Shown here piece after piece: positions 28,307 to 53,946 of a stretch of DNA of 53,946 nt (positions within the stretch are counted from its first letter, which is position 1; every line of letters begins with the position of its first letter). Source of the stretch: Vermamoeba vermiformis (Eukaryota); NCBI GenBank assembly GCA_045837725.1, contig JBEWZL010000261.1, forward strand, positions 62,001 to 115,946. Reading direction: 5' to 3'. The notes beneath the pieces were generated by a model, which did not search any database, had not been told where the DNA came from, and saw only the letters and a program-made list of their open reading frames with translations. Position numbers and translations under genes: made by a program.

Positions 28307-30545
28307 TCATTTATCGCTATTATCGTTGAGTTTTTGTCGCTTCATCTCATTCATCTCGCGTTTCTTCAAGCTGGCTTTACGCTTCCAATGCGATTTCGAA
28401 GAATTATGCACATCCCACTCGTGTTGACCATTAAGCACTTTGTTGCATATAACGCATTCATATTTCTTCCATTCTTGTTTCTCTGACGCCTCATCCGAAC
28501 TCAAAACTTTGTTCCATTCAACCGCTGAATTCTCAAGGAACGCTAAAAAAGGAAATAAAGTAAGTCACGTGATTTTCTAAATAAGGAAATACCGTATGTC
28601 CGATCTTTTGGACAGGTTCGTTCTTCTCAGAGGCAACTTTTTGTTTCCAAATTAGGAAATAAAATAAACTTCGAGTGTCATGCACGATCGACGTACCTTT
28701 GCAAATATTTATGGCGGGAACGCAAACGTTCGCGTCCCAATTGGGCAGTTCAGTCGCATCTAAGCAATAAATCGGGGTTCGTGTGACACTCGCCAATCTG
28801 TTCTTGATCCACGTGGTTTGTTTTCGCGCGTAATGTCGCGTGTTAGATTTGAGTTGTTTGAGACACTCTGACAGCACTTCATTCAAACTTTCATCGCGTG
28901 CAATCTCGTCACTTGACACGTTTTTCGTCTTTTCCAAATATGGTGCGAACTCTTTGTACCCTACCCGCACAAGAAATTAGCAAATTTAATCAAAATATCA
29001 TAAAAACTAAAAAAGTACAAGTCGAAACGAATACTATTTTCGTAATTATTAAGTCCCTAAATAGATAGTATAGAAAGCACTCAATGCGTACCAATCGACT
29101 GAAACACTCCTTTCGTGAATTCAATTGGCACTCCTGTCTGCACGAACAAATCACGCAGTTGTAACACTTCTTGGACGAGTTCACGCTGATAAGCAAAAAA
29201 ACGTCAGAATTAGCTCACAATAATCATACCCAATTATAAGCCGTAAATTTCATAGTCCCCGTTTCTTTTCACCAGAGATCCGCTCGAAAAAAAAAGGTCG
29301 GGCAATTTTGAATGGTGGATAGTAATCAAATACAAAGAAAGTCCTTTAATTAAAGCTCAAAGTAGTTTTGCTCAATCGTGTTGAGCACTTACTTGCACCA
29401 TCTGATCAATGCGTTGGTCCAACCTTTCACCGAGCACTTCAAGCTTGGCTTTGGGCCACAAAATGCACGCGTCAAATGCGCGCACGTGTTCGTGTTTGAG
29501 CTGCTTGCTGTGCAACTCACCTGTGGTCAGTAACACCTACAAAAAATGCATGATTAATATTGGTATAATAATAGCAGCAATCCAATCGTATAAAATAAAA
29601 AAAATGTCACGAATAGTTAAATTCGTAGAAGGTAAAATTTTGACTGCACGAAATGCACGTAAGATAATTTTTGTTTTGAATAAAACTTTCACTAGATTTT
29701 TTGAAGTATTATTACAGTTAATACTTTGACCGTTGTAACTTACGTGCAAAGATCTAATAATTTTGCGGAAATCATTCGGATGAAGTTTTAATGCACGAGC
29801 TGGATCTATTCGCTCGAGTACTTTGAACAGCTGGTCACGTGGTATTTGTTCGAGCAATTGTTGCAAATGTTCTTCTTGTTCGTTTTTAACCCGTTTATAA
29901 ATATTATTGAGGTTCAGTGGCTCTTTGTTGATTATTTCAAGCAGATCTGATAGCGTGCAAGGTGGTACTTTGTCACCAATTTTTTGGTCTTCAGATGCAT
30001 GTTGCTGGTCTTGGGTCATATACAGGTTTGATACAAGCAGACCCTCTATATACTGATGGGTACCACCGACTAATATAGGCAATTTGCCTCGTGACAGAAT
30101 GTCATCAATAGCGGATCTTGCAGCAGCAATAAACTTCGATACATTGAACCAAGTATCTGTTGGCTCGACAATATCGATCATATGATGCGATATCTATTAA
30201 TAGTATTATATAAGCCTACAATTATGTTTAAAGATTGCTGCTGACTTACGCCATCTGCTTCATCGGGTGTCACTTTGTTTGTCGCTATGCTGACTTGCTA
30301 ATAATTTTAAATTTATTAATATATTAATAATCACACGTTTTTGTATTATTTTTGCAATGAAAATATGCAGTAGAAATTTTTAAAATTTTGTTTGGAATAT
30401 TTACCTTGTAGATCTGCATTGAATCGCACGAAACTACTTCACCATTGAATTTCTTTGCGAGAGCAACTCCTAATTTGGTTTTTCCGACCCCTGTTGAGCC
30501 AACAACGACGAGCATTTTTGGTTTTTGAAGATCTTTTGCCTCCAT
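28307..30545 (-). CDS. TRIT1: tRNA dimethylallyltransferase (TRIT1/MOD5-like) with C-terminal C2H2 zinc finger
   Basis: GSTGVGKT P-loop, [49 protein letters not shown]...HNSSKSH. Confidence 0.93.
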
Positions 30546-30949: not shown

Positions 30950-31756
30950 CTAAGGACGAGGAGTTCCAGGAGGGCAAACGTTCTGTCCACAAATGTCATT
31001 CTCGCATACTCTGACGACAGTGTTCGCAGGAATGTCGTTGGCGCTCAATCCGGGGTTTAGCTCCTCAAATCTGGGACCATTAATGCTGAATCTGGCAAAC
31101 AAAGTCATAGTGGTCCAGTTGCGTCCGGTGGTAGTCAAGCATCGGTTAGTTCTAGGAGGAAGAGTGCATCCAGTGCAAATGCATGTTTGAGATCGAGCGT
31201 AGTGTTCTTTAACATCGCGAAGTTGGTTCAATCCGCCAGTAATAATACGAAGAGCTGAGCCAAGTTGTTCAGTATCAGCAAATCTGTTCAAATTGTTTCT
31301 AGTCCAGATCCAAGTGGCGGTTTTAATAGCCCAAGGCATTTCAGAAACAAGATCAGGATTGGAAACGAAATCCTGTCCCAAAGCTTGACTTGCGGCTTGA
31401 TAGTTAAACTTGTCCTGCATTCTGAAAGCACCTCGACCACGGAAAGCGCAGCCTCCATCGTAGTGTCTGCACATAGTAGTATTGGCTTCAGTCCACTGAA
31501 TAAATCTGCCTGTCAAACTTCCAGCAAGAGCCAAGAACATTCTAATGCGAGGCAATGTATCAATATTGGCCTCAGTCAATGCAGCATTCATATGAGGCAA
31601 GTAGCTGGAGATTCTCGCATCTCTTTCGTGCCAAGCTTCCAAAACTGGAGGATACAAACAGTTCATTTGGTCCAAAGTAATATTAACTCTGGCCTGAGCC
31701 TCGGTAATAAATACACCTAAGGCAACGAGCAAAGTTACAACAATAATCGCTCGCAT
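30950..31756 (-). CDS. Secreted GH19 chitinase/endolysin-like protein lacking the catalytic Glu, with C-terminal LysM-like domain; intronless
   Basis: Signal peptide; MFLA, FRGRG, NY, NPDLV, IITGGLN motifs of GH19; ELNPGLSANDIPANTVVRV resembles LysM. Confidence 0.8.
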   Translation of the reverse strand: MRAIIVVTLLVALGVFITEAQARVNITLDQMNCLYPPVLEAWHERDARISSYLPHMNAALTEANIDTLPRIRMFLALAGSLTGRFIQWTEANTTMCRHYDGGCAFRGRGAFRMQDKFNYQAASQALGQDFVSNPDLVSEMPWAIKTATWIWTRNNLNRFADTEQLGSALRIITGGLNQLRDVKEHYARSQTCICTGCTLPPRTNRCLTTTGRNWTTMTLFARFSINGPRFEELNPGLSANDIPANTVVRVCENDICGQNVCPPGTPRP

Positions 31757-32002
31757 GGTGTTCAACGCAGAAAAAATACGAAAATCATTATCGCAGCTCT
31801 AGAAACTTCCAACAAGAACACTTTGACAGCTGTGGGACATTTATCGCATGAAATCTAGGGTTAAGAGCATACGCATGCGTATATACGAAGAAGCAAAAGG
31901 GTATTCTTGATTTGATTCCAAACCGAAACGGGATCGAGATCACAAAATGGTATTTGCTTGTCGCATATCTTTAATTTAGTTACAATAGTGCTAAATATAC
32001 GA

Positions 32003-35931: not shown

Positions 35932-37896
35932 TTAAACAAATTTAACTTGGAGGTCACTATGCGTTGGAACCCAAAACTTGACTTCATTCGAGTCAGATGC
36001 CGTCACAAGCAAGTCTACTTGCGGATGTATCGTCGCGAAGTTAACTAAGTATTCATTAGTACGTAATTCGTAATCGATCATTGAAGACTTACGTAATTTA
36101 TCGTGAGCTTTAAATTGATGCATAATATTCTCAGAGTGCTTGTGTACAAACGTTAATTTTCCATCACCAGATCCGCTACAAATAATTTGTTCGCCAAGTG
36201 CGAAAGAAGGATGGACTATAAACATATCCTTGACTCGTCCAACGACCCACGAACTAATCTTTGTCATTGTTTTCAAGTCCCATAAATGCGTTTCAATTTC
36301 GTCGACGACGGCATCATTGCTCTATTAAGAAAAATAATATTAATTAATTATCAGATATATTATTTAAGGCATGAAGTTGATTGTTTTATGGTACTTACGG
36401 GGTTAGTAAAGTTGCGGACGTTGATAAGCAACTGCTCTTCATTTTCTGAGAAACAAAAGCCGATAATGTGACCACTCTCTTGAATAACTTTACAATCCTT
36501 TCGGAGAGTTGGTTCAGGTTGAACTTTTTCCTTCTAAAATTTAATCATAAGTATGGATATAATGCGAAAATTGGATCCGATCCACGATTTTCTTTTGTTT
36601 ACTTACCTCATCATCGTCAGAGTCATAAATATACTCCCCAGTGTTTTCATCAATCACAGGTGGCTTAAAAGGAATAGAGCGCTTTTTTAATTGCTCCACT
36701 TCGACTAGCCACAATTCATCAAGCAGATCGATGTCCTGGCTGTTTGGAGAAGCAGTAGCTCCGGCCATATAGGTCTTTTTAGGACTTAATATATTAAAAT
36801 GAAGCGAGTTAGGGGAGCTTTGAATGATAGACCGCCAGACTTGGGTTTTCGTTGCCACATCCATCAACTGCATTGTCATGACCATTGTACCATCACTAGT
36901 TCTCTTATAATACACAGCTTCGATATTAAAATTAGTAAGCGTACTATCTAATACGAATAGAGATTATTTTTGGAACTTACAATGCAACATCTGCTCGTTG
37001 TTGAGCCATCCAGCGTAACAATCAAATAACGCGACTCTAACGTGGATTGAATCACTCCAATCTTTCATCGCCAGTCCTACCGCTGAATCACCGCTCATAG
37101 TGCAGATAAGGTGGTCTGAATTAGGGGACCATTCGTGTCTTGTGATTGAATCGAGGTAAGTGCGAGTGAAGACCTCTTCTACTGTGAGGACGCTATGAAA
37201 GAATCTCATTAATAATATTGTTCAAATTATAAACATAGTTCAGTCTTTGTAAAAATAGTTTGACGGAAGATCTTCTGAATCCAGAATAAGGGTATTGTAA
37301 ATTGGGAGATGGCATTAATATTTAAAATAAACTTAATTAAAGTGCACAATTTAAATCGCTTACGGGGTTGGTTCGTGTTGGATGTTCAACTTCCAAATTT
37401 TCAAGGCTCCAGCTTTGTCGGAACTGGCGAGGTATTGACCGTCAGGGCTGAAACTGATTTGCCACGCCTCGTCGTATGTTTTGTGCGTATGAAGAAGCTT
37501 CCAACTGCGATACAAGGCGCTTTTTTTGTAAAGTGTCGCGAAAGGTAGATTTGGTAAAGGTCCGTTCTCTTTCAATTCGATGAAATCTCGATGATACATG
37601 TGCTTCCATATATAGTCTTCCTTATGAAAGTGACTCCATGCTTTGCAAACGGTGTCTAAATGTCAGAAAAATATTTAGAATTTAATTTTTTCATATATTA
37701 TCTGCAAATTATAATAATAAATGAAATTGATTGCCAGTAGGAATAGTTTAATTTAAGATATAATGGAATTATTTAGTGCAAAATTGAACAGAATCTGGTA
37801 CGGACTTGCTCGCAAGAACGATCTCCAATCCAAGAAGTGAAACACTAACGCGAGTATTTCATTAGACATATGCTCTATTCCAACCACTTTCTCCAT
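35932..37896 (-). CDS. F-box/WD40 protein (FBXW5-like), multi-exon
   Basis: MSNEILALVFHFLD...VCKAW F-box; WD repeats ISFSPDGQYLASS...KIW, SGSGDG, TASDSNEVKFW. Confidence 0.82.
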
Positions 37897-37999
37897 TTTA
37901 ATGGTATTTGTTTGTGGAGCAGCTTGCGTGAAGTTTAGTAAACTCAACAAAGACGGGACGAGATTTTTTTTTTCACAAACCAATTTTATTTATAGCACA

Positions 38000-40962
38000 A
38001 TGGATTATCCTCAATTATATGAGGTTCTTCCATTTGAAATATTAGTTGAAATTTTATCGTTAGTGCCGCCTAGTGCCGTGGTTCATTTTGCAAGCGCATC
38101 CAAACGCCATCTGAAGGTTTTTAATCAAGAAAATGGCTTGTGGCAACATCTAACATGCAAAATACAACGTTGGAGTGCCAATGGTGCGTATGATAATTTG
38201 TGGAGCGGATCTACATTGTCAAATTTCCCGCCATCCAAATTTATTCATGACCATAAAATTCTAAAATTCCAATAAAGGCTAGAATTTCATTAACATATAT
38301 TATAGATGCGAAAGCACTACGAGAAGGAAAAAAATCGGTCGATTGGTCGAAGGAGTACCGCGTCGCAGCATTTTATCATGACAAGATCATCAATAATCAA
38401 CTCCAGCACGATAAAAGAGCTAATACGAATGAATATATGCCCGAGATATCAAAAAATCATTTTAAATTCACACCGAACCAAGATCCAGCCGTGCAAACTT
38501 CCGATCGAATTCTTCGTACGTTACTGTACGAATGATTCTCGATAATATTAATAGTATATTTATAGAGCCTTCAAAGTACAGTACCCTTATACCCGCTGCC
38601 ATTAGGAAACTTTTCTACAGCCTATTTCGAGGTCGCAATTCTAGCGATGGAAGAGTAAGACTTTTGAACATGATTGCACAATATGCATGAACTAATTTTA
38701 TTAGTGGTATATCTTCAATTCATATAGGTGCCGCCCTTGAAGGCTATGTAGCAATGCCAGGCATAGGACGTAATTCCTATGGGTATGACAGCGAAGGCAA
38801 CATACTGCTCGAGAGCGAACTTAGTCCTAACGATGTACCAACTTTTAATGCTGGAGATATTAGTAAGTCTATTTAATTACAATACAATACGATAACGAAT
38901 AGTATACAAATTTAATTGGGTTTGAGATCGAGATCCTGATAGAATTTTTTTGCGCAGTTGGATTTGGCATCAACTTCGTCAAAAATTCAGTTTTCTTCAC
39001 AAAGAATGGAGTTCTAATAGGAGATAAGACACATACTTACCTGCAATTTCCTGTGCTAAATTTAAAGACCCTCCATGCTTGCGTCGGATGTCTTCTTGGC
39101 TGTGAATTCCGCGCTAATTTTGGCTCATTGCCCTTCAAATTCGACCTATTGAAGTATCAGCATCAATATGGCCATACAGATACCTTAGAACTCTACTCGA
39201 CAAAAAGTTCGTACTGGATGCATCCGTTACAAATTCTATTTTGAAGTTACTTTACTTACCATTTGTTAAATATAGTGCTAGGTCATTTATTCCGAGTTTC
39301 AGACGATGAAACAATCCCAGAATATACCAAAGAAGGTGCTATCGCTAAAATTTCGACGATGGACTATAACCTGCCAGATCCGTCGATGAAATTGAACTTA
39401 TATTTATGGTTAACGCATTACCATCGAGACCCTCGACCTAACGGTTATGATTCTAATCAATTTATACAATTTTGGTTCAGTCAGTTGTTAATTAGCAGTC
39501 TGGATGCGCTGTTATCGTAAGTTGAAAGTGTACGGAAGATTGTTTTAAAAATTTATCAATTTTATTATGATAGATGGGAGCACAGTGAAAAGTTCAAGAT
39601 ATCTTTAGAACAAATGGCGCAATCTCTAAATTTGGTATGAGGGACTTTTTTGCTTCGATCCACTTGCAAGATCATTAATCGTATTGTATAGCCATATGAA
39701 GGCTTGCCTTATGAAGAATTGGTCATGACAATTTATCGAGATGCAAAAGGAATTTTTATCGATAACATTTTCGGCGTCATTTCGTTGGCATTAGAGGAGC
39801 TTACTCAAACAGCTTTTACCGTAATAAGTTTATTTAATTTTTAAATTAAATTTCGCGTAATAATTATATTATTTTTTAGGAAGACAATGGCCTATGGGCT
39901 CACCTTATTCTTGCATTTAACCATTTAAGTAAGATCCAATATTTTTTTTCAATTAAAAATTTGTTTGACGAGAACTAATGAATATATTATCATATAGATA
40001 GTGGAGTTCCATTGGAGCATTATACACAACAAGCTGCTGCAATGGTTTTAGTGAACACGTTCAATTATCAATTGCAAGGACCCACTTTCACGCAACAAGA
40101 TTTCTTTTCTATTATCGACAATTACTTCTGGTACTTGTTTTATCTGTAAGTCTACTCGGCTTCTAAAGATTCATATCAATATTAATTGTATTTAAATGCT
40201 TAGTACTCGTTCGCGTGCTCGCCAAGAGGTCATCTTGCAAAAAAATATCAAGTTGGCAGAGCCGTTTAAAAGTGGAAAACTGCGTAATGAAGTTCTTGTA
40301 AGTGCTATTTTATCATAATAATAAGAATAGGTACTAATAGATTTGATTAGAGGGTTTACGGAGATTCCTCACGCCTTGCTATAGACGAAATTTTGGAAAA
40401 TGCAGATCTGCCCGTTTGGAGCGAAGAACAAGTTGATCCCGAAAAATTCCCGTTTAGGCTTATTTATGGCATCAAAAACAAGACGTTATCAACGTACACA
40501 AAAGCATCGGCAATATTATACGGAATGTATTACCTGAAAATTCCCGTGGATGAGTTCCCAACAGAAGAACAGTTTCTGTCAGACGTTCTCAGAAAATGCG
40601 AAGAACTTGTGTCATTAGAGCGTAGAAAAGAATTATTGAAGAATTTGGCTTTAAACATTAGCGCGAACAGCAGCAACGGCAAAATTGAACACGAATTGGT
40701 AGCTGACATGTTTGGCATCGAGATGACAATTAGCAGTGCCGAAGACGAGTCAAAATTAGTGGTGCAGCCATTAATGATCAAAAAGGCGTTTGAACGAGTT
40801 GAAAATGAGATCGCGCAAATTGACAAGCAGATCCAATCTCGCAATCAAAGCGCCTCAACATCGACCCAATCAATATTATCAACAAAGAATATCATAATAG
40901 CTGCTAGTGTGTTGGCTGTTGCTATTGGCGGGTTTTTCTTGTACAAACGAAAGACAAAATAA
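38000..40962 (+). CDS. F-box + SPRY + helical domain protein with C-terminal tail anchor (copy 1), many exons
   Basis: LPFEILVEILSL F-box; SPRY motifs AYFEV, PGIGRNSYGY, GDIVGFGIN, FFTKNG, ANFG.PF.FD; terminal IIIAASVLAVAIGGFFLYKRKTK. Confidence 0.85.
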
Positions 40963-40963
40963 A

Positions 40964-40977
40964 TTGACACGTGTCAA
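40964..40977. repeat. Perfect 14-bp palindrome TTGACACGTGTCAA between convergent genes
   Basis: Seen directly, immediately after the stop of F-box/SPRY copy 1. Confidence 0.8.
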
Positions 40978-41014
40978 CTAAACTATTTTTCTTGACAATA
41001 TTTAATTGTTGGGT

Positions 41015-42229
41015 CTAATCTACATCTTCCATTGAAGTTGACGATGTTATTGGCGCTGAGCTAATGATGTTTTCATTATAAGTTTCATTATCGCCATTAG
41101 TTTCTTTTGCTTCGGTTGGATCCGCTTTCAGTTCAACTATACTTGACTCTTCTCTGGTACTTTTAACATTCGTGCTATTCGTACTATTCGCATTGTTATT
41201 ATTTTTCGTGGAATTTCCATTATTAGTATTTTTGTTGGTCTGGTCCTCGTCAAGATCTTCGTCGCTATCCGTCGTTGTAATTCCCAACTTCTTTTTAATC
41301 AATCGTTCAATTTTTCTGCGGTATTTTGGCATAACTTCTTGATTCTTTTTGTATTCTAAGCCAAATAAGACTATCAGTGGCAATGAATATTCCGGCAAAT
41401 CTTCATCAGTGACTGATTTCAACTCGGCCAATGTGAATTTCAAATATTCAACTTTCGCCTTATCCGTCAATAATTTATCCAATCTTTTGTGCATTTCAGC
41501 GACAAATCGTTGTTTTGTGTTGAATTTGTTGGGCATAATTTTCATCACGTGCAGGCCGTAGAGAATTGGCATCGTTGTGACAGTTCTTGCTAACAATGAT
41601 TTCATCACAAATGGCATAAATTTTTCGACTCTTCGTTCTTTATGCGGATAACTCTTCATCTCGCCGTAAAATTTTTGCAAAGCTTGATCTTCCTTTCCAA
41701 AAATTTTCTGCAAAGGCAAGATTTAGCTATTTGTTACTTTCACAGTAATTAATATACTCACGATAGCTTGTTCAAGGTCTTTTATCTTCAATGGCACCAT
41801 TACGTATTCCAATTTTTGGTCGACAATTTGTCGGATCCCGTCCAGCCTCATCCTGTCAAACATTCATTAATAAAAATTAATTATAATAACTATTATATAC
41901 TTACATTGGTATGCTGCAGTTAATGATAGAAAACGCTTCGGCGTAAGTTGGGTTTTCGAGTCCTGGAATCGGATCTCCAGCTTGAATGGCAGCGTCAACG
42001 ACGTAACAAAAAGAATTCAATTTTTCATCGCCTAATAAGAATATTAACGTTATTATTTAATAAATTATTATAATTAATCCAAACTTACCCAGCGTTAATA
42101 ATCGAACTAATTTAAAGGCCCATTGTTCCTCGTACTTAAATTTCAAGTCAATTAGATCATTATATATTAGCATTAATATTATATAACGTACTTCGAATGC
42201 ATGTTTCACAATAGTATCGCGCATTTCAA
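41015..42229 (-). pseudogene. 3' half of F-box/SPRY copy 2, separated from its 5' half (48787-50581) by an inversion
   Basis: Exons (LEMRDTIVKHAFE | YEEQWAFKLV... | ...PILYGLHVMKI) align with the later exons of copy 1. No start of its own; abuts the breakpoint. Confidence 0.8.
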
Positions 42230-43932
42230 GAGGTTCTTGATTGACTCTGGAATCGTTGACGCGATATAATTATTCTGCAGATCCAACGACACCAACTCCG
42301 TAAAGTTGCCAATGATTGAAGGAATCGTTGCTGCTCCAATCCTTTGACTAAAAGCAAGCGGTAAAAAGATGTGAATAACCCGGCCAGTCGTAGTGTTGCA
42401 CCTGATCCCATACCACGAGCAATGTGGCTCAGTAAAGTTCCATTGTGGTTTTGTACTGTTCGCCCATATTGCGTCGTAGAGTTCAAGCAGCATATTCCGT
42501 TCGTAATTTGCATGTGTTAGTTGTTTGAGTCCTGGTGCAGTACTCGGAGTGAGACTCGTGAGTGGAACTGTCGAGCCTCGATTTGGCGTTGGTGTAGTGA
42601 GAAGTGCGAAACCAATTACAATCGAGGCGATAATAGCTGAGAGTGCGACAGCACCAAGTGTCCAGCCAATCACTTTTCTTCTCTTGGTCGTCTTGTTCGT
42701 CTTGTTGTTCGTTGTCACGGGCTCTGTTTGTGCTTTCGGTTTTGCACCAGTAAATTGGTCGTAGAGAGAGTCCACAACGCGTTTGATTCGATCAACTTCA
42801 GAAGTGACGTTCTGAATGTCATTGTAGTTCTGTTTGATTGACTCACTCATGTATGGTATCAGTGACTCGTAGTCGACGTAGAGAATACCTGCGTAGATTA
42901 ACAATATTAGATCACTCCGGGTCCACTGGTTATCGCGTACCATCGATGAGTTGAACAGCTTCAGGCACCACACTTTCAATCTGTTGAGCAATGTACCCAA
43001 TGAACCTCTTGTTCGTTGCATGACTCACTCCTGGCTTGAACTTGTACGATATTCCGTTGATTTGAAGTAACGCCGCTCTGCTGTCTCGATCTGAATGAAT
43101 TAGATAAGCGAACACGATGTGCTCTTATTGGTAGGTACCTCCTTCCAACAAGCGAATGTCTTCTTTGATATTGATATCTGATGCTTTGTAGAAGTTGAGT
43201 GCTCGGAAGTTGCCCACGACTTCTGCATTGCCGTTGTACAGTACCATGTAGTTGTCGCTTTCTTTCGTCAGTGCCAGCGAGAGCTGGCTCTCCTCCACAA
43301 TGCTCTCAACGTTAAAGATTGCGTCCTCGAAGAGGTATTCTTGAATACTTGGCGAAGACTTGACCTCTTCCGGGTGTCAGCAAGATAGCCATCTTCGCCG
43401 ATCCAGTAGATCGGGACCACAGCTGTCATTATGATTTTAGTTCAGAAATAGGTTCGGAAACGATAAAAATAATCTACTTCTTTCGAATAGAGTGAGCATT
43501 CTTACTCTCGTTTTCTTCGTCATTGCTTTGAACGTGCCGCCTTTTTGGAAAAAGCTCCCAGATTCGAGAGGTGCCTGCTTTGACCAAATTTCCGTTTTCA
43601 AAATATTCAATTATCACCTGAAACAGTCTGTCTTTCGTTCTTCTGAAGTCAAATACGCCTTGGTTGATTTTTAAACGAATAAATAAACCACTGACTGAAT
43701 TTTCAGAGTCTTCAGAGTAGATCAACGGATTTCGTTTCGCCCAAGTGAAACAATTCTTCGGTTCATGCTTGATATTGCCAAAGTGGTCTGTTGCAACCAA
43801 TTTAATATTGAAACTACATCGAATGTCGACCATGTCGAATCCAAACGGTTCTGTTCTCGTGACCGCAGACCCAAGATTCTCGTTGAGCGGAACCAAGAGC
43901 CGGAACATATTTCTGATGTGTATTTTCTCCAT
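42230..43932 (-). CDS. MYRF-like membrane-tethered factor copy 1, 5' part (putative DNA-binding domain, peptidase S74, coiled coil, TM, first LRRs); exons 43932-43506, 43422-43139, 43090-42941, 42888-breakpoint; 1-nt deficit at ~43372
   Basis: ASDINIKEDI, GYIAQQIESVVPEAV, VDYESLIP (S74 motifs); TM VIGWTLGAVALSAIIASIVIGFALL; LRR N-cap CSWYGIRC. As assembled it runs into a stop at 42206. Confidence 0.85.
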
Positions 43933-43974
43933 CTTTGTTGCCTGTTGTAATTACTGAGCCATTGTTAGAATAAA

Positions 43975-45196
43975 TTGGGAAAAATTCAAACGTGCCAAAA
44001 ATATCTTTCGCTCGAAAGACAACTCGAAGATATTTTCAACAAACGAGTCAAAGTATTACAAGTCCAAGAAGAAGATTTAGTCGGCAGGTCTTTTGACTTA
44101 GAAGCAGATTGTATTGTGCAATTCCTGACTGGAACAAGTTCGTTTTTGATAGACCGAATTACAACATCACAAAAAATTACGGAGACTGAACCTAGTAAGC
44201 CAATCATATAGTTATATTAACTTACATAATCATCGATTAATTTTATGAGTGATTTAGTTCTAGCCCACCACTCGTTCTTCCACATTAACGGAGACTTTAT
44301 TTTGTACTTTACGCCCGCAAATCAATTAATGGTACGATTCTTTTTCGTTATACTTATTTTATTACACAGACTTGACTAATATTTAAAATAGATATTGAAC
44401 TGGAAGACTAATGATGTGTCGAGTTTGGAAGTGTTATCTGTCAGTGAATCTCGGCTGGCGCTAGCACTGCCGAAGAGGTTCTTTAATACCTGCGAATACA
44501 CAATATTTGCAGACTCAGAGAGGGTCATATTAATCAACCTGAACGAAGCAACAGGCACGTCAAGGCTAACTTGTTCTATCCAATGTTCGTTAATATTAAC
44601 CAGATCTTGCAGTCGTCAGAAGTTATGTCTCACCGACAAGGTTCAAACCATGTTTTTTGCAACTATGGCCTGGAGACAAATCAAAGTTTTTCTGCGTCGG
44701 AAGTATCATGCATGTACGTGAATATCGCGGTTTTGAAAACTCACGTGATCTGATTTTTTCATTGCAGATCTGGTCAGTATACGAGTCTCGAATATTGGAT
44801 TCTATATTAGTGCACCCAATTCATCCACTGAGCAACAACGAGGCTTTTCCGCTTAAAGTGAAATTTCACGACAACAAAGTATTTTTGCAATACCCAACAG
44901 TGATTCACGTAAGATTCTTATTATGACGCCTAAATTGTATCTGACGCCTATATTTATTATGGCAGATCTTGAGCAAGACTATAAATGGATCATATGAGCT
45001 GTTGAATAGCTTCAAAGAAGGTTGTTTTGACTTTGACGAGTGTCATTTATTTGATACCGAACCTTTTCTGCATACATCTCTCATTATTAGCGATTTTTCA
45101 CCAAAGACGTTGCCTGCAAATGAACAGAATAACAATACTAATCAGTCCAATCCGGCAAGATCTGCGGATGTTCAAACGTTCGAAGTTATCGATTAA
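43975..45196 (+). pseudogene. Multi-exon gene fragment (beta-propeller-like) with no identifiable start codon
   Basis: Several GT-AG-bounded open exons (ILNWKTNDV..., IWSVYESRIL..., FDFDECHL...IISDFS); the 5' end runs into the upstream region of MYRF-like copy 1. Confidence 0.45.
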
Positions 45197-45271
45197 GGCC
45201 CGGATGATAGTACTCAAGGTACCACTTTACCGAACAATGATAATATAGTATAACAAGGTTGTGATTTTATT

Positions 45272-46465
45272 TTACAATTTTTCAACGTCAAAAACGACTG
45301 GTGGATTGGTTGGCATGTACGAATATGTACAAGTCGATGCGTTAATAAAAATGGTCTCTTTGTCTTCATATACGCCATAGCTACGCAAGTACATAGTTAA
45401 TATAACAAGATAATCCAAACAAGGCAATTCTATATTTAACTTACGACTCGTGGATGTGCCCGAAGACGTGGACTAAAGGCTTGGCCTTACGAATAACTTT
45501 AATTAATTCTTCGCAGCCTGCATCGATTCCATTCTTACAAAGACCTCCAAAACCTAATATATATAACATAAAATAAGTTTCTGGAGCAAAAATTCGGTTG
45601 ATCCGATCCGGATTTGATCTTGCAACAAAAGAGCTCCTTTCTTAATAATTAATTTACCTTGAGGAGGTCCATGAGTAATTAATACGTCTATGCCATCGAG
45701 GGGAATTTTGTCCCATTTCTCGCGAATTGCAGGTCCTCGCTCTACGTTGAAGGCCCAATCGCAGAACTCTGGCTGCCAAGGACTACCATATATTCTAATC
45801 CCTTCTATTGTAGTCTCTTGGTCCTATTGCTACTATTAATACTTGAAATTTCAGCAGATCAGCCGCGTTACCTCTAAGTAGATGCAGTTCTTGAGCAGTT
45901 TTTTTGGCTCAGGGCCATATTGTCGATCTGGATTCATTTTTCTTTGTGCTCGCGTTTCTAAATAGCCGTCTTCAAAGGATAAATCGTGATTTCCTAATTT
46001 GCTGAATTGGTATTTATTTGAAAATTCAAAGTCTTCATGATCTTACCCGCAATAACTACTTTATGCTTAAAACCCGATTTTCCTAAGAATTCACTGAGAG
46101 ATATAATGTCTTTATCTTCTCCTACGTTTGAAAAATCGCCAGCTATTTAAAGAATTAAAATTGAATTTTTTGTTTAATTTACAAATTATTATTTACCATG
46201 TATCAATACGTCTCCTGCTGGTATATTCTTTATTTTATCATGCATTGAATGAGTATCCGATATACAAACGAATCGGACCGCGTTAGGTGATTTTGCAGGT
46301 AAATCCTCTTAACAAAATTAATTAGCGATCTTATGACGTATAATATATTACATTACCTTTTGGATCGTACACAGTTAATTTTGTTTTTTGCCTTGTAATG
46401 GTGAAGGAACCAAATCCAGGATCAGCCGGCAAGTTTATGTCGTCAGTACTTGCGTTATTGCCCAT
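45272..46465 (-). CDS. Metallophosphoesterase (MPPED1/2-like), multi-exon, possible N-myristoylation (MGNNAS)
   Basis: RFVCISDTH, DVLIHAGD, IAGNHD, YGSPWQP, LITHGPP, HVFGHIHE, FINAS. Confidence 0.92.
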
Positions 46466-46588
46466 TAATTAAGAATTTATTTATCCTCGGGTTGTTGCTA
46501 GCAATTTGAAAATATTAAAACAACCAAACACGAAAGTTTGTTACTTTTTCATTCTTGCGAAGGCAGGACAAACCGTCCCTGGTCTATA

Positions 46589-47476
46589 ATGGCCACAATA
46601 GAGCTCAACTTTTCTGAAGACGAAGCTATTAAAAGTTATCTCGAACAAAGTATTGCAGTAACCGGCCAAACACCAGATCTGATTGCCGTATCATTTGTTG
46701 AAAATGTCTCCGACGCAGGAATTAAGGCGATATTAGCACCAAAATTAGCAACAAAATTAAAGAGAATTTATGTTAATTTTTGCGAGAATATTAAAGAAGC
46801 AGAATCATTTTCAGATCTTCCATCTGCTACAAACCTTCAAGATCTGTCGTTTCTGTATTGCCCAGTGCTTGACGATCAGCTGCTACATTATGTATCAAAA
46901 TGTCGAACCGTAGAAAACCTATCAGTAATTGGATGCGTCTCGGCAGATCCGTGGACAACGAAAAATATCGTGGCGATGACAGATCTCAAAAAATTGACGC
47001 TAAACCACAACGAATACCTTACAACTGAAGATATTGCCTCCATTAGTACTTTATCAAATCTTACAGAGCTAGATATGGAAGATATTCACTTGAACAACGA
47101 AAGTTTGTTTTCGATCGTGGATGGATCTGGATCGAGCAATTTAAAGAGATTGAATATTGAAGAGAATCCCGACGTCACAAATATCGGATTCCACGAGTTA
47201 ACAAAATTAAGTAATTTAGAAGCATTACGAATCGGAGTCTGTCAAGCGACGGATGTGGGCTGGAGATCAATTGGCAAATTGACGCAATTAACAGCACTTC
47301 AAATATTAGGCAGCACTAATTTGACAAATAACGGATTCCAAGAAATTATCACGGAATTAACACGACTGAAGGAGCTACTAGTTTGTTTTTGCGATCAGCT
47401 TACCCAACAATCCGTCCGTGCCTCAATTAAGCAACTCACTAATCTCACCAAAATATCGATTACAGATATTGATTAG
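46589..47476 (+). CDS. Cys-containing LRR protein (FBXL/AMN1-like repeats, no evident F-box), intronless
   Basis: LxxLxLxxCxxLTD-type repeats throughout. Confidence 0.85.
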   Translation: MATIELNFSEDEAIKSYLEQSIAVTGQTPDLIAVSFVENVSDAGIKAILAPKLATKLKRIYVNFCENIKEAESFSDLPSATNLQDLSFLYCPVLDDQLLHYVSKCRTVENLSVIGCVSADPWTTKNIVAMTDLKKLTLNHNEYLTTEDIASISTLSNLTELDMEDIHLNNESLFSIVDGSGSSNLKRLNIEENPDVTNIGFHELTKLSNLEALRIGVCQATDVGWRSIGKLTQLTALQILGSTNLTNNGFQEIITELTRLKELLVCFCDQLTQQSVRASIKQLTNLTKISITDID

Positions 47477-47775
47477 AATATTTTTGCTCACCAGCCCAAC
47501 AATGAAGTGATCCACGTATTTACTCTCTGGATCTTTGAATCAGATTTGAAGATCGAACTTTTGTTTCGGAGCTTCACTCTTTGTTCTGCAGAAGTCAAAG
47601 TGCTCGTCTATAAGTCCACCTCAAGGGGCTTATAACGGGGCGGAGTTTGCTGGAGAAACTAATTTGCCCGTTTTTCCGAAGATAGTTTGTCCATTTCACC
47701 GAGCGCCGCACACTTAAATAGCGAACTTTCGTACATTCTGCATTCAAATTCCAACACAACAAACACAAACAAAGC

Positions 47776-48654
47776 ATGTCCTCGGCAACTCAAACATCCC
47801 GCGTCATTCTCATCACTGGCTGCTCAAGTGGCTTTGGCCGGTCATTTGCTCAACACTTCCTCGAGCAAGGCCAAAAAGTCGTAGTAACTGCCCGAAAACT
47901 CGATACCATTCAACATTTTGCTGCGAAATTCCCTTCACACGCCCTCGTGCTCTCATTGGATGTCAACAACCAAGATTCAGTGAACGCTGCTGTCGCGAAA
48001 ACTCTCGAGAAATTTGGTCGAATCGACGTTCTTATCAACAACGCTGGATACTGCTTGTATGGCTTGGTAGAGCACTATTCTGAAGCAGAATATCGCTTGC
48101 AAATGGAAACTAACTTCTTCGGGGCTGTTCGAATGACTCAAGCCGTCCTGCCTTCGATGCGCAAAAACAGATCCGGTCACGTGATTCAAATCAGCTCTGT
48201 TGGCGGTGTCGTTGCTAGTCCAATGGTCACACTCTACAATGCGAGTAAATTCGCTCTTGAAGGGTTCACTGAAGGATTAGCCAAAGAGACCGCAGCTTTC
48301 AACGTCCGTTTTACCATCGTTGAACCGGGAGGCTTCTTGACCGATATCACCAGCGATAAGAACTTAATTGCTGCAAATACAACAGATGAAGCCACTGACG
48401 CTGATTACGCTCCAGTCATACAGAATAATCAAAAGTTCTTGGAATATTTGAAGAACGCGCCTGGCGATACCAACAAGGCCTCAGCAGCTGTCTTGCAAAT
48501 CATTCAAGCACCGAACCCTCCTCTTCGCTTGCCTTTAGGCGCTGACTCAGTCGGACTCATCAAAGCCAAGCTCGATCAGCAACTGAAGGAGATCCAAGCG
48601 TGGGAACAACTAGCCGTCTCCACCACCTTTGACCACGTTAATGCTAGCCACTAA
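47776..48654 (+). CDS. Classical short-chain dehydrogenase/reductase, intronless
   Basis: TGCSSGFG, NNAG, catalytic YNASK. Confidence 0.95.
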   Translation: MSSATQTSRVILITGCSSGFGRSFAQHFLEQGQKVVVTARKLDTIQHFAAKFPSHALVLSLDVNNQDSVNAAVAKTLEKFGRIDVLINNAGYCLYGLVEHYSEAEYRLQMETNFFGAVRMTQAVLPSMRKNRSGHVIQISSVGGVVASPMVTLYNASKFALEGFTEGLAKETAAFNVRFTIVEPGGFLTDITSDKNLIAANTTDEATDADYAPVIQNNQKFLEYLKNAPGDTNKASAAVLQIIQAPNPPLRLPLGADSVGLIKAKLDQQLKEIQAWEQLAVSTTFDHVNASH

Positions 48655-48786
48655 AAGTAGCTCATTTATCTGTCACTCAAATAAAGGAAAATCTGCTTCC
48701 AAAAATAGACATATTTTTACCGTTACAAATTGTTGTTGAAAGCGAAATCATACTAGTACGAAACACAAAGCTGGATATTGGTAATA

Positions 48787-50581
48787 ATGGAAGAAGATAC
48801 AAGGTCAAGCGATTTTTTTGCGCTGCCACTGGATGTGCTGGTCGATCTTTTACGATCGACAGATCGAGCTACGATTGTTAACTTATCTAGCGTTTGCAAA
48901 TACCACAAAAATCAATTCGATAAAGAAGATGGTCTATGGAAGAGATTAACATTGAAAATATTTGGCTGGACTGCCCAAGGTAATTACGAAAATCACAAAA
49001 ATGAAAATATAATTTGCAGCCATTATTTAAAGCCTAAAAATGCTTTATTGTATTCGATTATAATTTTAGAAAATAATATTTGAGCTATACTTTACTTTTT
49101 GTTCTTGTCAAGTCTCGATCAGATCATGATCGAAAGGTCAGAAAGTACTAATCACAATATTTAGACTCAAAAACATATCTAAACGATAGAAAAAATATCG
49201 ACTGGCGAAAGGAATATCGCGTGGCTTCATTTTATGACCACAAGATCCGAAATAACAAATTAGTTGTACTGTCTAAAGGAGGCAAAAATCCCTATAACTT
49301 CGTGGTAAGTATATCTAATTTACATATATAATGTAGTATTTTATTAATTTTATTTCGATTAGACGCCAACGAGTGTTTTTGAGTTGTATCCGCTTCCGAT
49401 CGGCGACTTCAGCACCGCTTATTATGAATTTAAAATGCTGGGAAACGATAAGTAGGCATCTTATATTAAATAATATATAAATTGGATCCAACTAAGGCTC
49501 TTGGTATTTTTAGATTTGGTGTACTTTGTTATGGTGCCGCACTACACGGATTTGACAACGCATTGCCAGGAATGGGACGAAATTCCTATGGATATTGCAG
49601 CGATGGCATGATTCATCTCGAATGTGAGACTGCTCCCGAAGATGTGCCTATATATGGCAATGGAGATTTACGTAAGTTTTTTATTCGAATTTGTAACGAG
49701 ATCTGGCGATCGCAAGCGGACTGTCTAATCAATCCTTATTAATGATTATACTATAGTTGGGTTTGGTATCAATTTTGCAAAGAAATCAATCTTTTTTACC
49801 AAAAATGGAAAGTTGATCCAAGAAAACACGACCAATGCGCACGGCCACAAACTCAAAAATCTTAAGACCTTATTTGCAACTATTAGCAAGATGAAGACGA
49901 AAGCATTAGATGCTAATTTTGGTGCCAAGCCATTTGTGTTCGATCTGATCCAATACCAGCAACAACAAAATAACAGATCAGATCCGTCCAAACTTTTCTC
50001 AGAAATAAGTACGTAGTATATAACCTATTATCTTTGCAAGTATTTATTAATTTTGTTCTTTAGTTTGCGATCATTTAACGACGTTAAGTGAAAGTGAAAC
50101 ATTTTTGGATATGACGACATTCGAACAGCCCTATTTAACGCTAGAATTTTATCCGCCAAGATTCGATCGATTCAAACTCAATCCATTTTTGTACACATTA
50201 ACTTTCTTGAAATTACCGCCTGGATACGATTCGTCAATCACCGACGAAATTTTTGATCTATTTTTATCCGTTCACGGCATTATGGATGCAAGAAAAATGT
50301 TACCCTCGTAAGTAATATTAATATATATATATATGTATATATTAGTAATTTATTGCAATGAATTTTCGCTAGAATGCAAAATTCAGTACGGATCCAAGAA
50401 GGCATTAAAGATATTACACGATCCCTTGGAATAGTAAGCCAAAGATATATTTAATAAATAAGAACTAAAATAATGTTATTTTATTCTTAGAAAACGAAGG
50501 GCAAATCATGGAATCAGTTAGTCAAAGACGTGGATTCGGAGTGCTTCAAATTTTATTGCATGGTTGTATACCAAATAGCTC
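48787..50581 (+). pseudogene. 5' half of F-box/SPRY copy 2; cut at the inversion breakpoint, runs into a stop at 50635-50637 as assembled
   Basis: LPLDVLVDLL F-box; PGMGRNSYGY, VGFGINF, FFTKNG, ANFGAKPFVFD; exon structure parallels copy 1. Confidence 0.82.
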
Positions 50582-51229
50582 AAGAATCTGGTTTACTTAA
50601 CACTTTCGGACAACCCACTCGTCGGAACACTTCCTGACTTGAGTGGATTGGAGAAACTAAAACAACTGAATATTGGTTCGACGCTATTATCAATGAACGA
50701 GAGCTCACTTGCCACGCTAATGCAAATTCAGTCACTTGAAAGCTTGTGGCTCCAACAAGTAACTATTGAAGGAGAACTGCCGTCGAACATTTCGAACTCA
50801 CTCACGATAATTGACCTATCAAACTGTGGGCTACAAGGAACAATTCCGACGTCTTGGGTAAACAGCAGCATTCAGCATCTATATATCAGTAGGAATAATC
50901 TCACCGGCTCTATTCCGTGCTTTGGCAAGGAAGTCTTATCTCTCGACGCATCTCACAACAACTTTGACGGAGAATTCTGTGGCAGTGAGTTTCGACGTTT
51001 GCTCCAATTGACCCTCACAGATACAAAGCTGACTGGCGTATTTGACTTGCCAAACGTTGATGTTTATGGCATGACCGGGTTGTTTATTCAACGAAATCGT
51101 TTCACTTCATTCATGCCTTCAACGATGAACAATACTGACGGGCCTTTCTCTTGCCTTGTTCTCGATAATCCGTTTCAATGTCCCATACCCAAGTGGGCTC
51201 AAGTCGAATGTCATGCCACTTGTAATTAA
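50579..51229 (+). CDS. Orphaned 3' LRR ectodomain of MYRF-like copy 1
   Basis: Reads LKNLVYLTLSDNPLVGTLP...NPFQCPIPKWAQVECHATCN*, collinear with the C-terminal half of copy 2. Confidence 0.88.
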   Translation, partial: LKNLVYLTLSDNPLVGTLPDLSGLEKLKQLNIGSTLLSMNESSLATLMQIQSLESLWLQQVTIEGELPSNISNSLTIIDLSNCGLQGTIPTSWVNSSIQHLYISRNNLTGSIPCFGKEVLSLDASHNNFDGEFCGSEFRRLLQLTLTDTKLTGVFDLPNVDVYGMTGLFIQRNRFTSFMPSTMNNTDGPFSCLVLDNPFQCPIPKWAQVECHATCN

Positions 51230-51514
51230 AGAAACGCGTTCTTGACTCAATATTTAGCGTAAGTAATTATTTACGATAAGCAGTTAGTTTGAAACTAAGT
51301 CTAATCTCAGCAACAAGAACTCTGGACTAGCGTAGGAAGCGTGATTAAACATGACACAAGGGGCTATTTAAGGTAATTTGATCCATAGTATAGTTAAAGA
51401 TTTGTTTCGAAACGAAAGATTCTACATCGAGCCGTTAAAATTGATGCTTTTGACACGTTTAAATTATTCCATTTTATGCTAACAATGACTCAGTGATTAC
51501 AACAAGCAACAAAG

Positions 51515-53946
51515 ATGGAGAAAATACACATCAGAAATATGTTTCGGCTCTTGGTTCCGCTCAACGAGAATCTCGGATCTGCGGTCACGAGAACAGAACC
51601 GTTTGGATTCGACATGGTCGACTTTCGGTGCAGTTTCAATATCAAATTGGTTGCAACAGACCATTTTGGAAATATCAAGCATGAACCGAAGAATTGTTTC
51701 ACTTGGGCAAAACGAAATCCGTTGATCTACTCTGAAGACTCTGAAAATTCTGTCAATGGTTTATTTATTCGTCTAAAAATCAACCAAGGCGTATTCGACT
51801 TTCGAAGAACGAAGGACAGAATGTTTCAGCTCATAGTTGAATATTTTGAAAACGGAAATTTGGTCAAAACAGGCACGTCTCGAATCTGGGAGCTTTTTCC
51901 AAAAAGGCGGCATGTTCAGGGTAATGACGAAGAAAATGAGAGTAAGTAGATCACTTTTATCGTTTCCGAATCTATTTCTGAACTAAATCACAATATCAGC
52001 CGTTCTTCCGATCTACTGGATCGGCGAAGATGGCTATCTTGCGGACACCCCATCACGTGTATCGCCTGGCTATCTATCTGATACTCAGCCGCAAATATCA
52101 CCTGAAGATATGTCTGCTCATCAAATCAATGCTGCCTCTTCTGAAGAGGCCAAGTCTTCGCCGAGCATTCAAGAGTACCTCTTCGAGGACGCGATCTTTG
52201 ACGTTGAAAGCCTCGTGGAAGAAAGCCAACTGTCGATGGCACTGACGAAAGGAAGCGACAACTACATGGTGCTGTACAACGGCAATGCAGAAGTCGTGGG
52301 AAACTTTCGAGCACTCAACTTCTACAAAGCATCAGATATCAACATTAAAGAAGACATTCGCTTGTTGGAACAGGGTACGAGAACGTGTGCAATCTTTATT
52401 ATTTCGTTTAGCTTTGCTAACGTTCTGTATTCAGACCGAGACTGTCGAGCGTCACTCCTTCAAATCAACGGAGTGTCGTACAAGTTCAAACCAGGAGTGA
52501 GTCACGCAACGAACAAACGATTCATTGGATACATTGCTCAACAGATTGAAAGTGTGGTGCCTGAAGCTGTGCAACTCATCGATGGTACGTGCAAATGGAT
52601 AGTGTTATCGCTAAGAGTGAGCTAACGTTATTGACATAAATAGGTATTCTTCATGTGGATTACGAGTCACTGATACCATACATGAGTGAATCAATCAAAC
52701 AGAACTACAATGACATTCAGAACGTCACTTCCGAAGTTGATCGCATTCAACGAGTCATCGATGCTCTCTACGACCAATTCACTGGAACAACACAGAAGCT
52801 GCCAACAAAAAGAACCTCAAATAAGAATAGAACCAAGGTGATTGGCTGGACGATTGGCACTATTGGAGTATTGGCTCTCGTTATATCATTTGTCCTTGGT
52901 GCCGTGTTCTTCACAAACCAAAATGAAACACCAAGTGCAACAGTTCCAACAACAAATGTCAACCCAAGTACGAACAGGCCTAACCTTGCGCCTCTAATGC
53001 CTGCAAACTACGAGCGAGGCATGGTGTTAGAGTTGTATCATTCGTTGCAGCTCGTCAACAAAGCGCTTCAGAACTTGACGGGCCCGCACTGTGACTGGCC
53101 TGGAATATCATGCAACGCTACCACAGGTCGTGTCATCAGCATCAAAATTAATACGTTAATGGGTCACTTTCAACTAAGACCGGGCATGCCTGCAACTATT
53201 CCAGCGAGCATTGGAAATTTCACAGAGCTGCAATTCTTGGATCTGAGCTTCAGCAATCTCACGGCAACAATTCCTGCGTCAATCACCAACTTGAAACAGC
53301 TATTTCATTTGCGACTAACCAGCAATCCTCATCTGACTGGCACATTGCCTGAGTTTGCAGCGTTACCTACGTTGAAGGAGCTGTTTCTCTTTGGCACTTC
53401 CCTTTCAGTGAACGAAAGCTCTCTGACGATGTTGATGAACTTGCCGTCAATTGAAACGCTCAGTCTACGCGGACTTGCGATCCGCTCTCAGCTACCTACA
53501 ACAATGTCCAAGTCGTTAAAACAGTTACTTATCAGTGGCTGTAGGTTGCACGGAACAATTCCGAAGTCATGGGAAGACAGCAACGTTCAATACCTTGACA
53601 TCAGCGACAATAGGCTCAATGGTTCTATTCCGTGCTTAGGAAAGAATATTCATTCGTTGTACGCTGATCACAACCAATTTTCTGGAGAATTTTGTGGCGA
53701 CAATTACAGACAAATTGAAGCGATGTTCCTGATGAATATGAATTTGACGGGAGTGTTTGACTTGCCGAACGCAGATATCTCTCAGATGTCAGCTCTATTT
53801 GTCCATGATAATCAGTTCACGTCGTTCATGCCGTCCTCACAACCGGACGAAGATCAAGGGCCACTTCAATGTTCAGCGGTTAACAACCCTCTCAAATGCC
53901 CGATTCCTGATTGGACGAAGAAATTATGTAGTGCCAAGTGCACCTG
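51515..53946 (+). CDS. MYRF-like membrane-tethered factor copy 2, intact: putative DNA-binding domain, S74 autoprotease/chaperone, coiled coil, TM (52838-52912), LRR ectodomain; exons 51515-51941, 52000-52374, 52435-52584, 52644-end
   Basis: All three introns are phase 1 and give one open frame. Ser 52332-34 and Lys 52347-49 in ASDINIK. CDWPGISC N-cap and ~9-10 LRRs. The window ends at ...KCT-TG, where the paralog stops. Confidence 0.9.

Follow-up and report, generated by a model that had tools for sequence, protein, structure and literature searches.

Two genes divided by one segment

The stretch analyzed here (the window, 53,946 nucleotides of Vermamoeba vermiformis DNA at positions 62,001 to 115,946 of the forward strand of contig JBEWZL010000261.1, assembly GCA_045837725.1) contains an inverted segment of 8,352 nt at positions 42230..50581, and two genes are split at its ends. 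One is a receptor-like gene that combines a MYRF-like part with leucine-rich repeats (LRRs), hereafter copy 1, and the other is an F-box/SPRY gene, hereafter gene B; turning the segment back in silico rejoins both of them. The 5' part of copy 1 lies on the minus strand (42230..43932) and, as judged from its open reading frames (ORFs), a Pfam LRRNT_2 match, and the translation, encodes an all-beta N-terminal domain, a Peptidase_S74-like region, a transmembrane stretch, an LRRNT cap, and the first LRRs. After the residues SIKNL, which end at 42230, the frame runs into seven foreign codons (LKCAILL) and a stop (42209-42229, minus strand). The orphaned 3' part of the same gene is found on the plus strand (50579..51229) as an ORF of 216 codons with LRRs (LRR_1 5.4e-12, LRR_4, LRR_8) and a cysteine-rich tail followed by a stop, and an in-frame stop codon stands directly upstream of its start at 50579. 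A sequence-only reading of this DNA had placed the end of SIKNL at 42230 on the minus strand and the letters CTC AAG AAT CTG GTT from 50579 on the plus strand, and both positions were confirmed.

Downstream lies copy 2 (51515..53946, plus strand), a second MYRF-like/LRR gene that is intact up to the end of the window (ORFs; Peptidase_S74 2.6e-09 and LRR families). In the present order, copy 1 and copy 2 form inverted repeats that are 83-93% alike. When copy 1 is rejoined, its LRR frame aligns without a gap with copy 2 and with three database relatives, and the coordinates then place both genes on the plus strand, in the tandem order that had been predicted from the letters.

Gene B is cut in a comparable manner. 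Its 5' part (48787..50581, plus strand) includes the F-box (F-box-like 5.9e-06), the SPRY domain (1.7e-04), and further exons, with five exon matches to an adjacent paralog, and the translation shows that the gene is cut 91 nt into a 129-nt exon starting at 50491, after which come 18 foreign codons and a stop. Its 3' part (41904..42229, minus strand) comprises the final 38 nt of the broken exon (42192-42229), after which comes GT, and the last exon, which is contained in the ORF 41904-42056 and resembles the exon at 39982-40146 of the paralog. This paralog, here called paralog A (37841..40146, plus strand), is an intact F-box/SPRY gene with an F-box-like Pfam match and provides the reference for the exon structure: five upstream exon pieces match between paralog A and gene B at 42-58% identity, and the rejoined exon of gene B, which measures 129 nt (43 codons) between an AG and a GT, agrees in length and in these bounds with the exon of paralog A at 39692-39820. 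The 43-codon exon of paralog-like length was thus correctly foreseen by the sequence-only reading; the residue likeness between the two exons is low, since a hand count gives only about 5 of 43 identical residues, and the match is weak by itself.

The letters at the two junctions define the event to within three nucleotides. At the left junction, the flank is followed by GAG (42230-42232) and then by the segment, and at the right junction, the segment is followed by CTC (50579-50581) and then by the flank. GAG and CTC are reverse complements, could belong to the segment as well as to its flank, and leave the break positions placeable anywhere inside these 3 nt. A scripted re-inversion gave the same product from 42230..50581 as from 42233..50578; therefore, the event is reciprocal, with no bases lost or gained, which bears out the earlier description of a lossless reciprocal inversion with a 3-bp overlap. 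The window contains no N letters, as established by script. Sequence around both breakpoints is unique, and the long repeats of the region, all of them between copy 1 and copy 2, are located elsewhere.

The un-inverted order in independent data

Contigs of three DNA runs from three different studies (X1, X4, and X6) and data of one RNA run (X21) were compared with positions 37500-53946 of the window. All three DNA runs carry the un-inverted joint, in which the two sides align to opposite strands of the window, at the predicted place, and in each of them three letters fit both sides. For example, in run X6, whose contigs are about 95% like the window, the joint 42229->50581 corresponds to the F-box junction (depth 7, 225 letters on the shorter side), whereas the LRR junction is represented by the joint 42230->50582 in run X1 (depth 338.5, 57 letters on the shorter side) and by the joint 42233->50579 in run X4 (depth 4.49, 153 letters on the shorter side). 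A database protein, P0001 (422 amino acids, from a 2,785-nt contig), likewise has an unbroken LRR frame that crosses the junction without a gap. It is 100% identical to the 5' half in the window (42230-43024, minus strand; about 207 amino acids) and 96% identical to the 3' half (50579-51229, plus strand), from which it differs at 9 of 216 residues. A search of JGI metagenome contigs and of a prokaryote genome collection returned no relative of P0001 and no exact match to a 25-nt word to the right of the junction. The comparison with other samples that had been proposed from the letters thus yields un-inverted junctions in X1, X4, X6, and P0001, from which it follows that the un-inverted order, with both genes whole, is ancestral and that the order in the window is derived. 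These outside data provide the decisive backing for the observation.

The shift in divergence within P0001 falls at or near the breakpoint, and it may reflect a mosaic of haplotypes, another allele, or a closely similar paralog.

In both broken genes, each half retains its open frame, and in protein the 5' half of the LRR exon of copy 1 is fully identical to an intact relative; therefore, the event is either recent or never happened in vivo. On balance, we consider it probable, with a fair measure of doubt, that the window order is a real, recent, and simple two-break inversion allele. The first part of what the sequence-only reading had proposed, an inverted order relative to the ancestral one that is reciprocal and recent, is supported by the open gene halves and the identity with P0001, whereas its reality as opposed to a misassembly is unproven. 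The other explanation to be weighed here is that the organism has only the un-inverted order and that the 8.35-kb piece was flipped during assembly or other handling of the data, which we regard as clearly the less likely of the two but as a serious possibility. All the external data that speak to the question (X1, X4, X6, and P0001) are un-inverted, and no decay is seen in either broken gene, as expected if no break ever took place in vivo. Stretches of run X1 are also identical to the window, and this run could be the sample or strain from which the window derives; even so, its LRR joint is un-inverted at a depth of 338.5.

An error of this kind would nevertheless be unusual in its form. Assemblers err at repeats, one chimeric read makes a single junction, and scaffolding leaves gaps; none of these normally gives an exact reciprocal flip, and such a flip at unique sites is hard to obtain as an artefact. 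Here, the breakpoints are outside repeats, each end of the exactly reciprocal flip shows the 3-nt overlap, and the sequence is free of N letters. Assembly inversion errors normally occur between inverted repeats or at scaffold gaps. The present case resembles them in that other data sets from the species have the segment in the opposite orientation, but it differs in that the ends are unique, gap-free, and exactly reciprocal, with breakpoints in neither repeats nor gaps.

Run X1 bears on both explanations. A run with the un-inverted form alone should have yielded a listed high-depth contig that crosses the F-box junction; instead, none is listed, and arithmetic on contig-end distances shows that the left-flank piece of X1 stops at 42232, at the breakpoint. 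Together, these two points fit a branch with two continuations in the assembly graph. Elsewhere in the run, a deletion is carried by a depth of 435 of 844.6 at 39547 and of 400.6 of 769.6 at 39842, and a window-identical piece at 51020-51393 has a depth of 396. Run X1 therefore looks like a mixture of two haplotypes at a depth of about 400-450 each, one of them window-like, with the ancestral LRR joint at about the depth of a single haplotype (338.5). The exact reciprocity at non-repeat sites and the X1 piece ending at the breakpoint favor a real, perhaps heterozygous, allele.

Several observations weigh against the reading as a real allele. The inverted junctions were unseen outside the window, in a contig listing that gave departures from the window rather than straight-through agreement. 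The contigs of X4 inside the segment differ from the window by 0-1 letters (pieces of 251-524 nt), yet the LRR joint of this run is un-inverted. Among nine database proteins (149-476 amino acids) that match the 5' half in a collection of 5.8 billion proteins, none has the truncated form, a count limited by the length range and by gene calling; it is also what would be expected from an artefact. The X1 joint contig extends 57 letters on its shorter side, whereas a 31-mer graph holding both forms at equal depth with identical flanks should break within 30. The depth-based haplotype reading is weak in any case, as summed contig depth is not copy number, and the asymmetry of P0001 across the junction (100% versus 96%) is unexplained. 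Finally, run X1 shows excess depth in the LRRNT region, and a very close paralog elsewhere could in principle supply the LRR-type joints of X1, X4, and P0001; the F-box joint of X6 is independent of this caveat. The RNA run X21 placed 204 reads on the stretch, 188 of them at 90-95% likeness and on conserved parts of the family, and none in the two junction bins, so that it allows no verdict on expression or on junction transcripts.

How the inversion may have arisen

If the allele is real, a first double-strand break would have fallen in the LRR exon of the first of the two tandem MYRF-like/LRR genes and a second one in the second-last exon of the F-box/SPRY gene, 8.35 kb away, and the intervening piece would have been re-ligated back to front, presumably by end joining (of the nonhomologous or microhomology-mediated type), without loss at the 3-nt GAG/CTC overlap. 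The sequenced organism would then carry the inverted form, probably on a single one of its two haplotypes, and the result would be two null or truncated alleles: the receptor-like gene would stop after its first LRRs and leave behind a promoterless LRR tail, and gene B would lose 38 nt of one exon together with its final exon. Such losses may be tolerated through the adjacent intact paralogs, and possibly also through an intact allele on the other haplotype. The locus has the marks of a simple balanced inversion, i.e. a reversed segment with both of its junctions, no long inverted repeats, and an overlap of a few nucleotides without loss.

The sequence-only reading had called the event microhomology-mediated. 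Among 200,000 random two-break inversions simulated in the window, 6.0% show an ambiguous overlap of 3 nt or longer, and for this reason microhomology mediation is possible but not shown. Nor do the flanks offer a longer stretch of homology: in inverted register, they are 25.6% identical over 301 nt, and the longest inverted word, 10 nt against 7-10 nt in 30 shuffles, is located away from the breaks. Comparison of the flanks, and the location of the long repeats elsewhere, left no inverted repeats at the breakpoints long enough for nonallelic homologous recombination (NAHR). Homologous recombination between the repeats of copy 1 and copy 2 was also considered as a cause and rejected, the breaks being outside these repeats, which are moreover direct, not inverted, in the ancestral order.

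The left junction as it now stands contains the hairpin TCAAGA-GGT-TCTTGA that had been pointed out from the letters, a near-palindrome at 42226..42240 with a stem of 6 bp, the best one found, and a 3-nt loop. Of 20,000 random inversions, 2.7% have a stem of at least 6 bp at one or the other junction, and 1.4% have it at a given one. It derives from the word TCAAGA, which is present near both ancestral breakpoints and, within the LRR gene, belongs to a repeated codon pattern. A variant of the inversion-allele reading would replace the two breaks and end joining with replicative template switching, a fold-back of the FoSTeS/MMBIR type. The hairpin, uncommon by chance at one junction, may point in this direction, as may the in-register likeness at the switch point, which is imperfect (6 of 8 nt, TTC..GAG), and the available text of PMC7702065 ascribes 5 of 13 resolved inversions to such mechanisms. 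According to the same text, however, template switching usually leaves templated insertions, duplications, or deletions at one junction, whereas both junctions here are exact and reciprocal, and we hold this variant to be very unlikely.

The junctions were also examined with regard to a programmed and reversible inversion, in which a recombinase would flip the segment and thereby toggle the receptor-like and F-box genes. The event is conservative and reciprocal, as in site-specific recombination, the left junction is a near-palindrome, and both forms may coexist in X1, although the evidence for the latter is indirect. On the other hand, the ends share only the 3-nt inverted repeat GAG/CTC, of a length that also accompanies 6% of random inversions, with flanks that are unrelated and a longest word within the shuffled range; matched inverted recombination sites are therefore lacking at both ends. 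Pfam families of recombinases, integrases, and transposases were absent from the 38 longer frames of the window that were scanned (20 + 18), a scan that may miss spliced genes. Both junctions lie inside coding exons, where the sequence is set by the protein, and the inverted state destroys both genes with no exchange of promoters or gene ends. The on/off switch that had been suggested is thus not supported: the inverted match at the ends does not extend beyond 3 nt, the frames scanned revealed no recombinase, and both genes are off in the inverted state. Such a programmed inversion is extremely improbable in our view, and we attach just as little credence to the idea that the two orientations interconvert in clonal populations, toggling a self-cleaving, LRR-bearing membrane transcription factor together with the F-box/SPRY gene. 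Toggling of this kind would require the DNA to be broken precisely and time after time at the GAG/CTC core, perhaps through a nuclease or a topoisomerase-like activity with a 3-nt stagger.

The receptor-like family, its neighbors, and known systems

The MYRF-like/LRR family is multi-copy, with a depth of 17,689 in run X1 in the bin 42990-43538 as compared with about 500 nearby. Its N-terminal domain (about 145 amino acids) has no Pfam match, NDT80 included, no hit in a PDB profile search, and nothing at E <=0.001 in a Foldseek search against the PDB; its relatives number 46 among 1.84 billion representatives. The structural model of this domain is a beta sandwich (pLDDT 88.7), for which VIA-align gave the DNA-binding domain of EBF1 as the best fold match (Z 9.1, rmsd 3.0, 119 aligned residues). 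The next match had a Z of 6.9, and other values were 5.8 for Velvet, 5.7 for p53, 5.3 for the MYRF DNA-binding domain, and 5.1 for Ndt80. Peptidase_S74 matches are present in copy 2 (2.6e-09) and in the relative P0003 (8.7e-11); a hydrophobic stretch follows this domain, as read by eye from the alignment, and the C-terminal part of the family consists of LRRNT_2 and LRRs rather than of a MYRF-type C-terminal region. Judged from these sequence features, the layout of Peptidase_S74 and membrane stretch is that of MYRF/MrfA with an LRR part outside, and membership in the NDT80 family is not established. The three members considered here (51515-53946, plus strand; 42230-43932, minus strand; and P0003) share this MYRF-like layout with a fused LRR "sensor".

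As in the membrane-tethered transcription factors MYRF and MrfA (PMC3742443, PMC3742440, and PMC3828593), an all-beta N-terminus of the p53/Rel/EBF-like class, a Peptidase_S74 domain (phage tailspike chaperone), and a transmembrane stretch follow one another in the same order. The family differs from MYRF in that it lacks an NDT80 Pfam match, has EBF1 as its best fold, and carries a plant-type LRR domain outside the membrane in place of the C-terminal region of MYRF. PMC8099431 describes how MYRF of Caenorhabditis elegans is bound by PAN-1, an LRR-containing membrane protein distinct from it, whereas the LRR is fused to the MYRF-like part here.

Two further observations concern copy 1. At corresponding sites of the two copies (43424 / 51949), a contig of run X4 passes from copy 1 into copy 2, which is due either to a cross-paralog alignment or to gene conversion, and in the lineage of run X6, 1,316 other letters replace 765 nt (43256-44022) upstream of the Peptidase_S74 region of copy 1.

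The segment also carries passenger genes that are unbroken (44000..48700). These are a metallophosphoesterase-like gene (about 45441-46042, minus strand), which we take to be such from recognized motifs and whose pieces have no Pfam hit; an LRR protein (46502-47476, plus strand; LRR families in Pfam); and an intronless short-chain dehydrogenase (47722-48654, plus strand; adh_short 1.8e-53). The nearest Atlas clusters of the dehydrogenase are 97-100% bacterial, and its horizontal acquisition is possible on the basis of this sequence affinity. In the ancestral order, paralog A and gene B stand tail to tail (37841-42229), and between them lie the genes 40351-40962 (plus strand) and 41015-41722 (minus strand), which are distantly alike by appearance; this region may be an old inverted segmental duplication. 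Farther away, two paralogs of an ABCG-type transporter (1068-3594, minus strand, and 20044-22187, plus strand; ABC_tran and ABC2_membrane_7) lie in opposite orientation about 17 kb apart, and the best named relatives of the ABCG-type frame are from chytrid fungi, at about 40% identity. The frames 30950-31798 and 29537-30193, both on the minus strand, have matches to Glyco_hydro_19 (class I chitinase) and IPP transferase and are neighbors of an ordinary sort.

Taken together, the findings at 42230..50581 probably reflect either a recent inversion allele of the usual sort or a mistake in assembly, and not a genetic switch; the event is of an ordinary kind, documented with unusual precision, and it is no new kind of biology. 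If real, it provides an example, resolved to the base, of a lossless inversion that arose spontaneously and inactivated two genes together in a freshwater eukaryote about which little is known, with breakpoints that are verified against the ancestral form in independent samples and hence usable as a haplotype or strain marker. It would at the same time supply a natural null allele of one gene from a large family whose members resemble self-cleaving, membrane-tethered transcription factors and bear LRRs. As an artefact, it would instead point to a mistake in a public assembly that would lead annotators to call four gene fragments in place of two genes.

Dedicated inversion systems such as Hin/Gin/Cin, the Fim switches, and the shufflons of bacteria, or FLP/FRT of the yeast 2-micron plasmid, have matched inverted sites of tens of bases, a dedicated recombinase, and two orientations that are both functional. 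The segment described here shares with them the conservative and reciprocal inversion of a defined piece of DNA, but its ends match over 3 nt, the frames scanned include no recombinase, and two genes are broken in one of its orientations.

A parallel is offered by simple balanced inversion polymorphisms, ascribed to nonhomologous or microhomology-mediated end joining, in which genes are disrupted, human HsInv0379 being an example. The available text of PMC4591017 describes a natural inversion, HsInv0379, with clean breaks and no indels that disrupted a gene, and the junction table of PMC7702065 lists several inversions with 0-bp loss that are blunt or have 1-3 bp of microhomology. As far as these parts of the two sources go, HsInv0379 differs from the present case in its size (415 kb versus 8.35 kb here); in the V. 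vermiformis window, both breaks lie in coding exons, of two genes, the host is a microbial eukaryote, and the inverted allele is a probable one. In common with HsInv0379 and the series of PMC7702065, on the other hand, the segment has breaks outside repeats, clean and lossless junctions with an overlap of 0-3 nt, a gene that is cut, and an ancestral order that is known from relatives.

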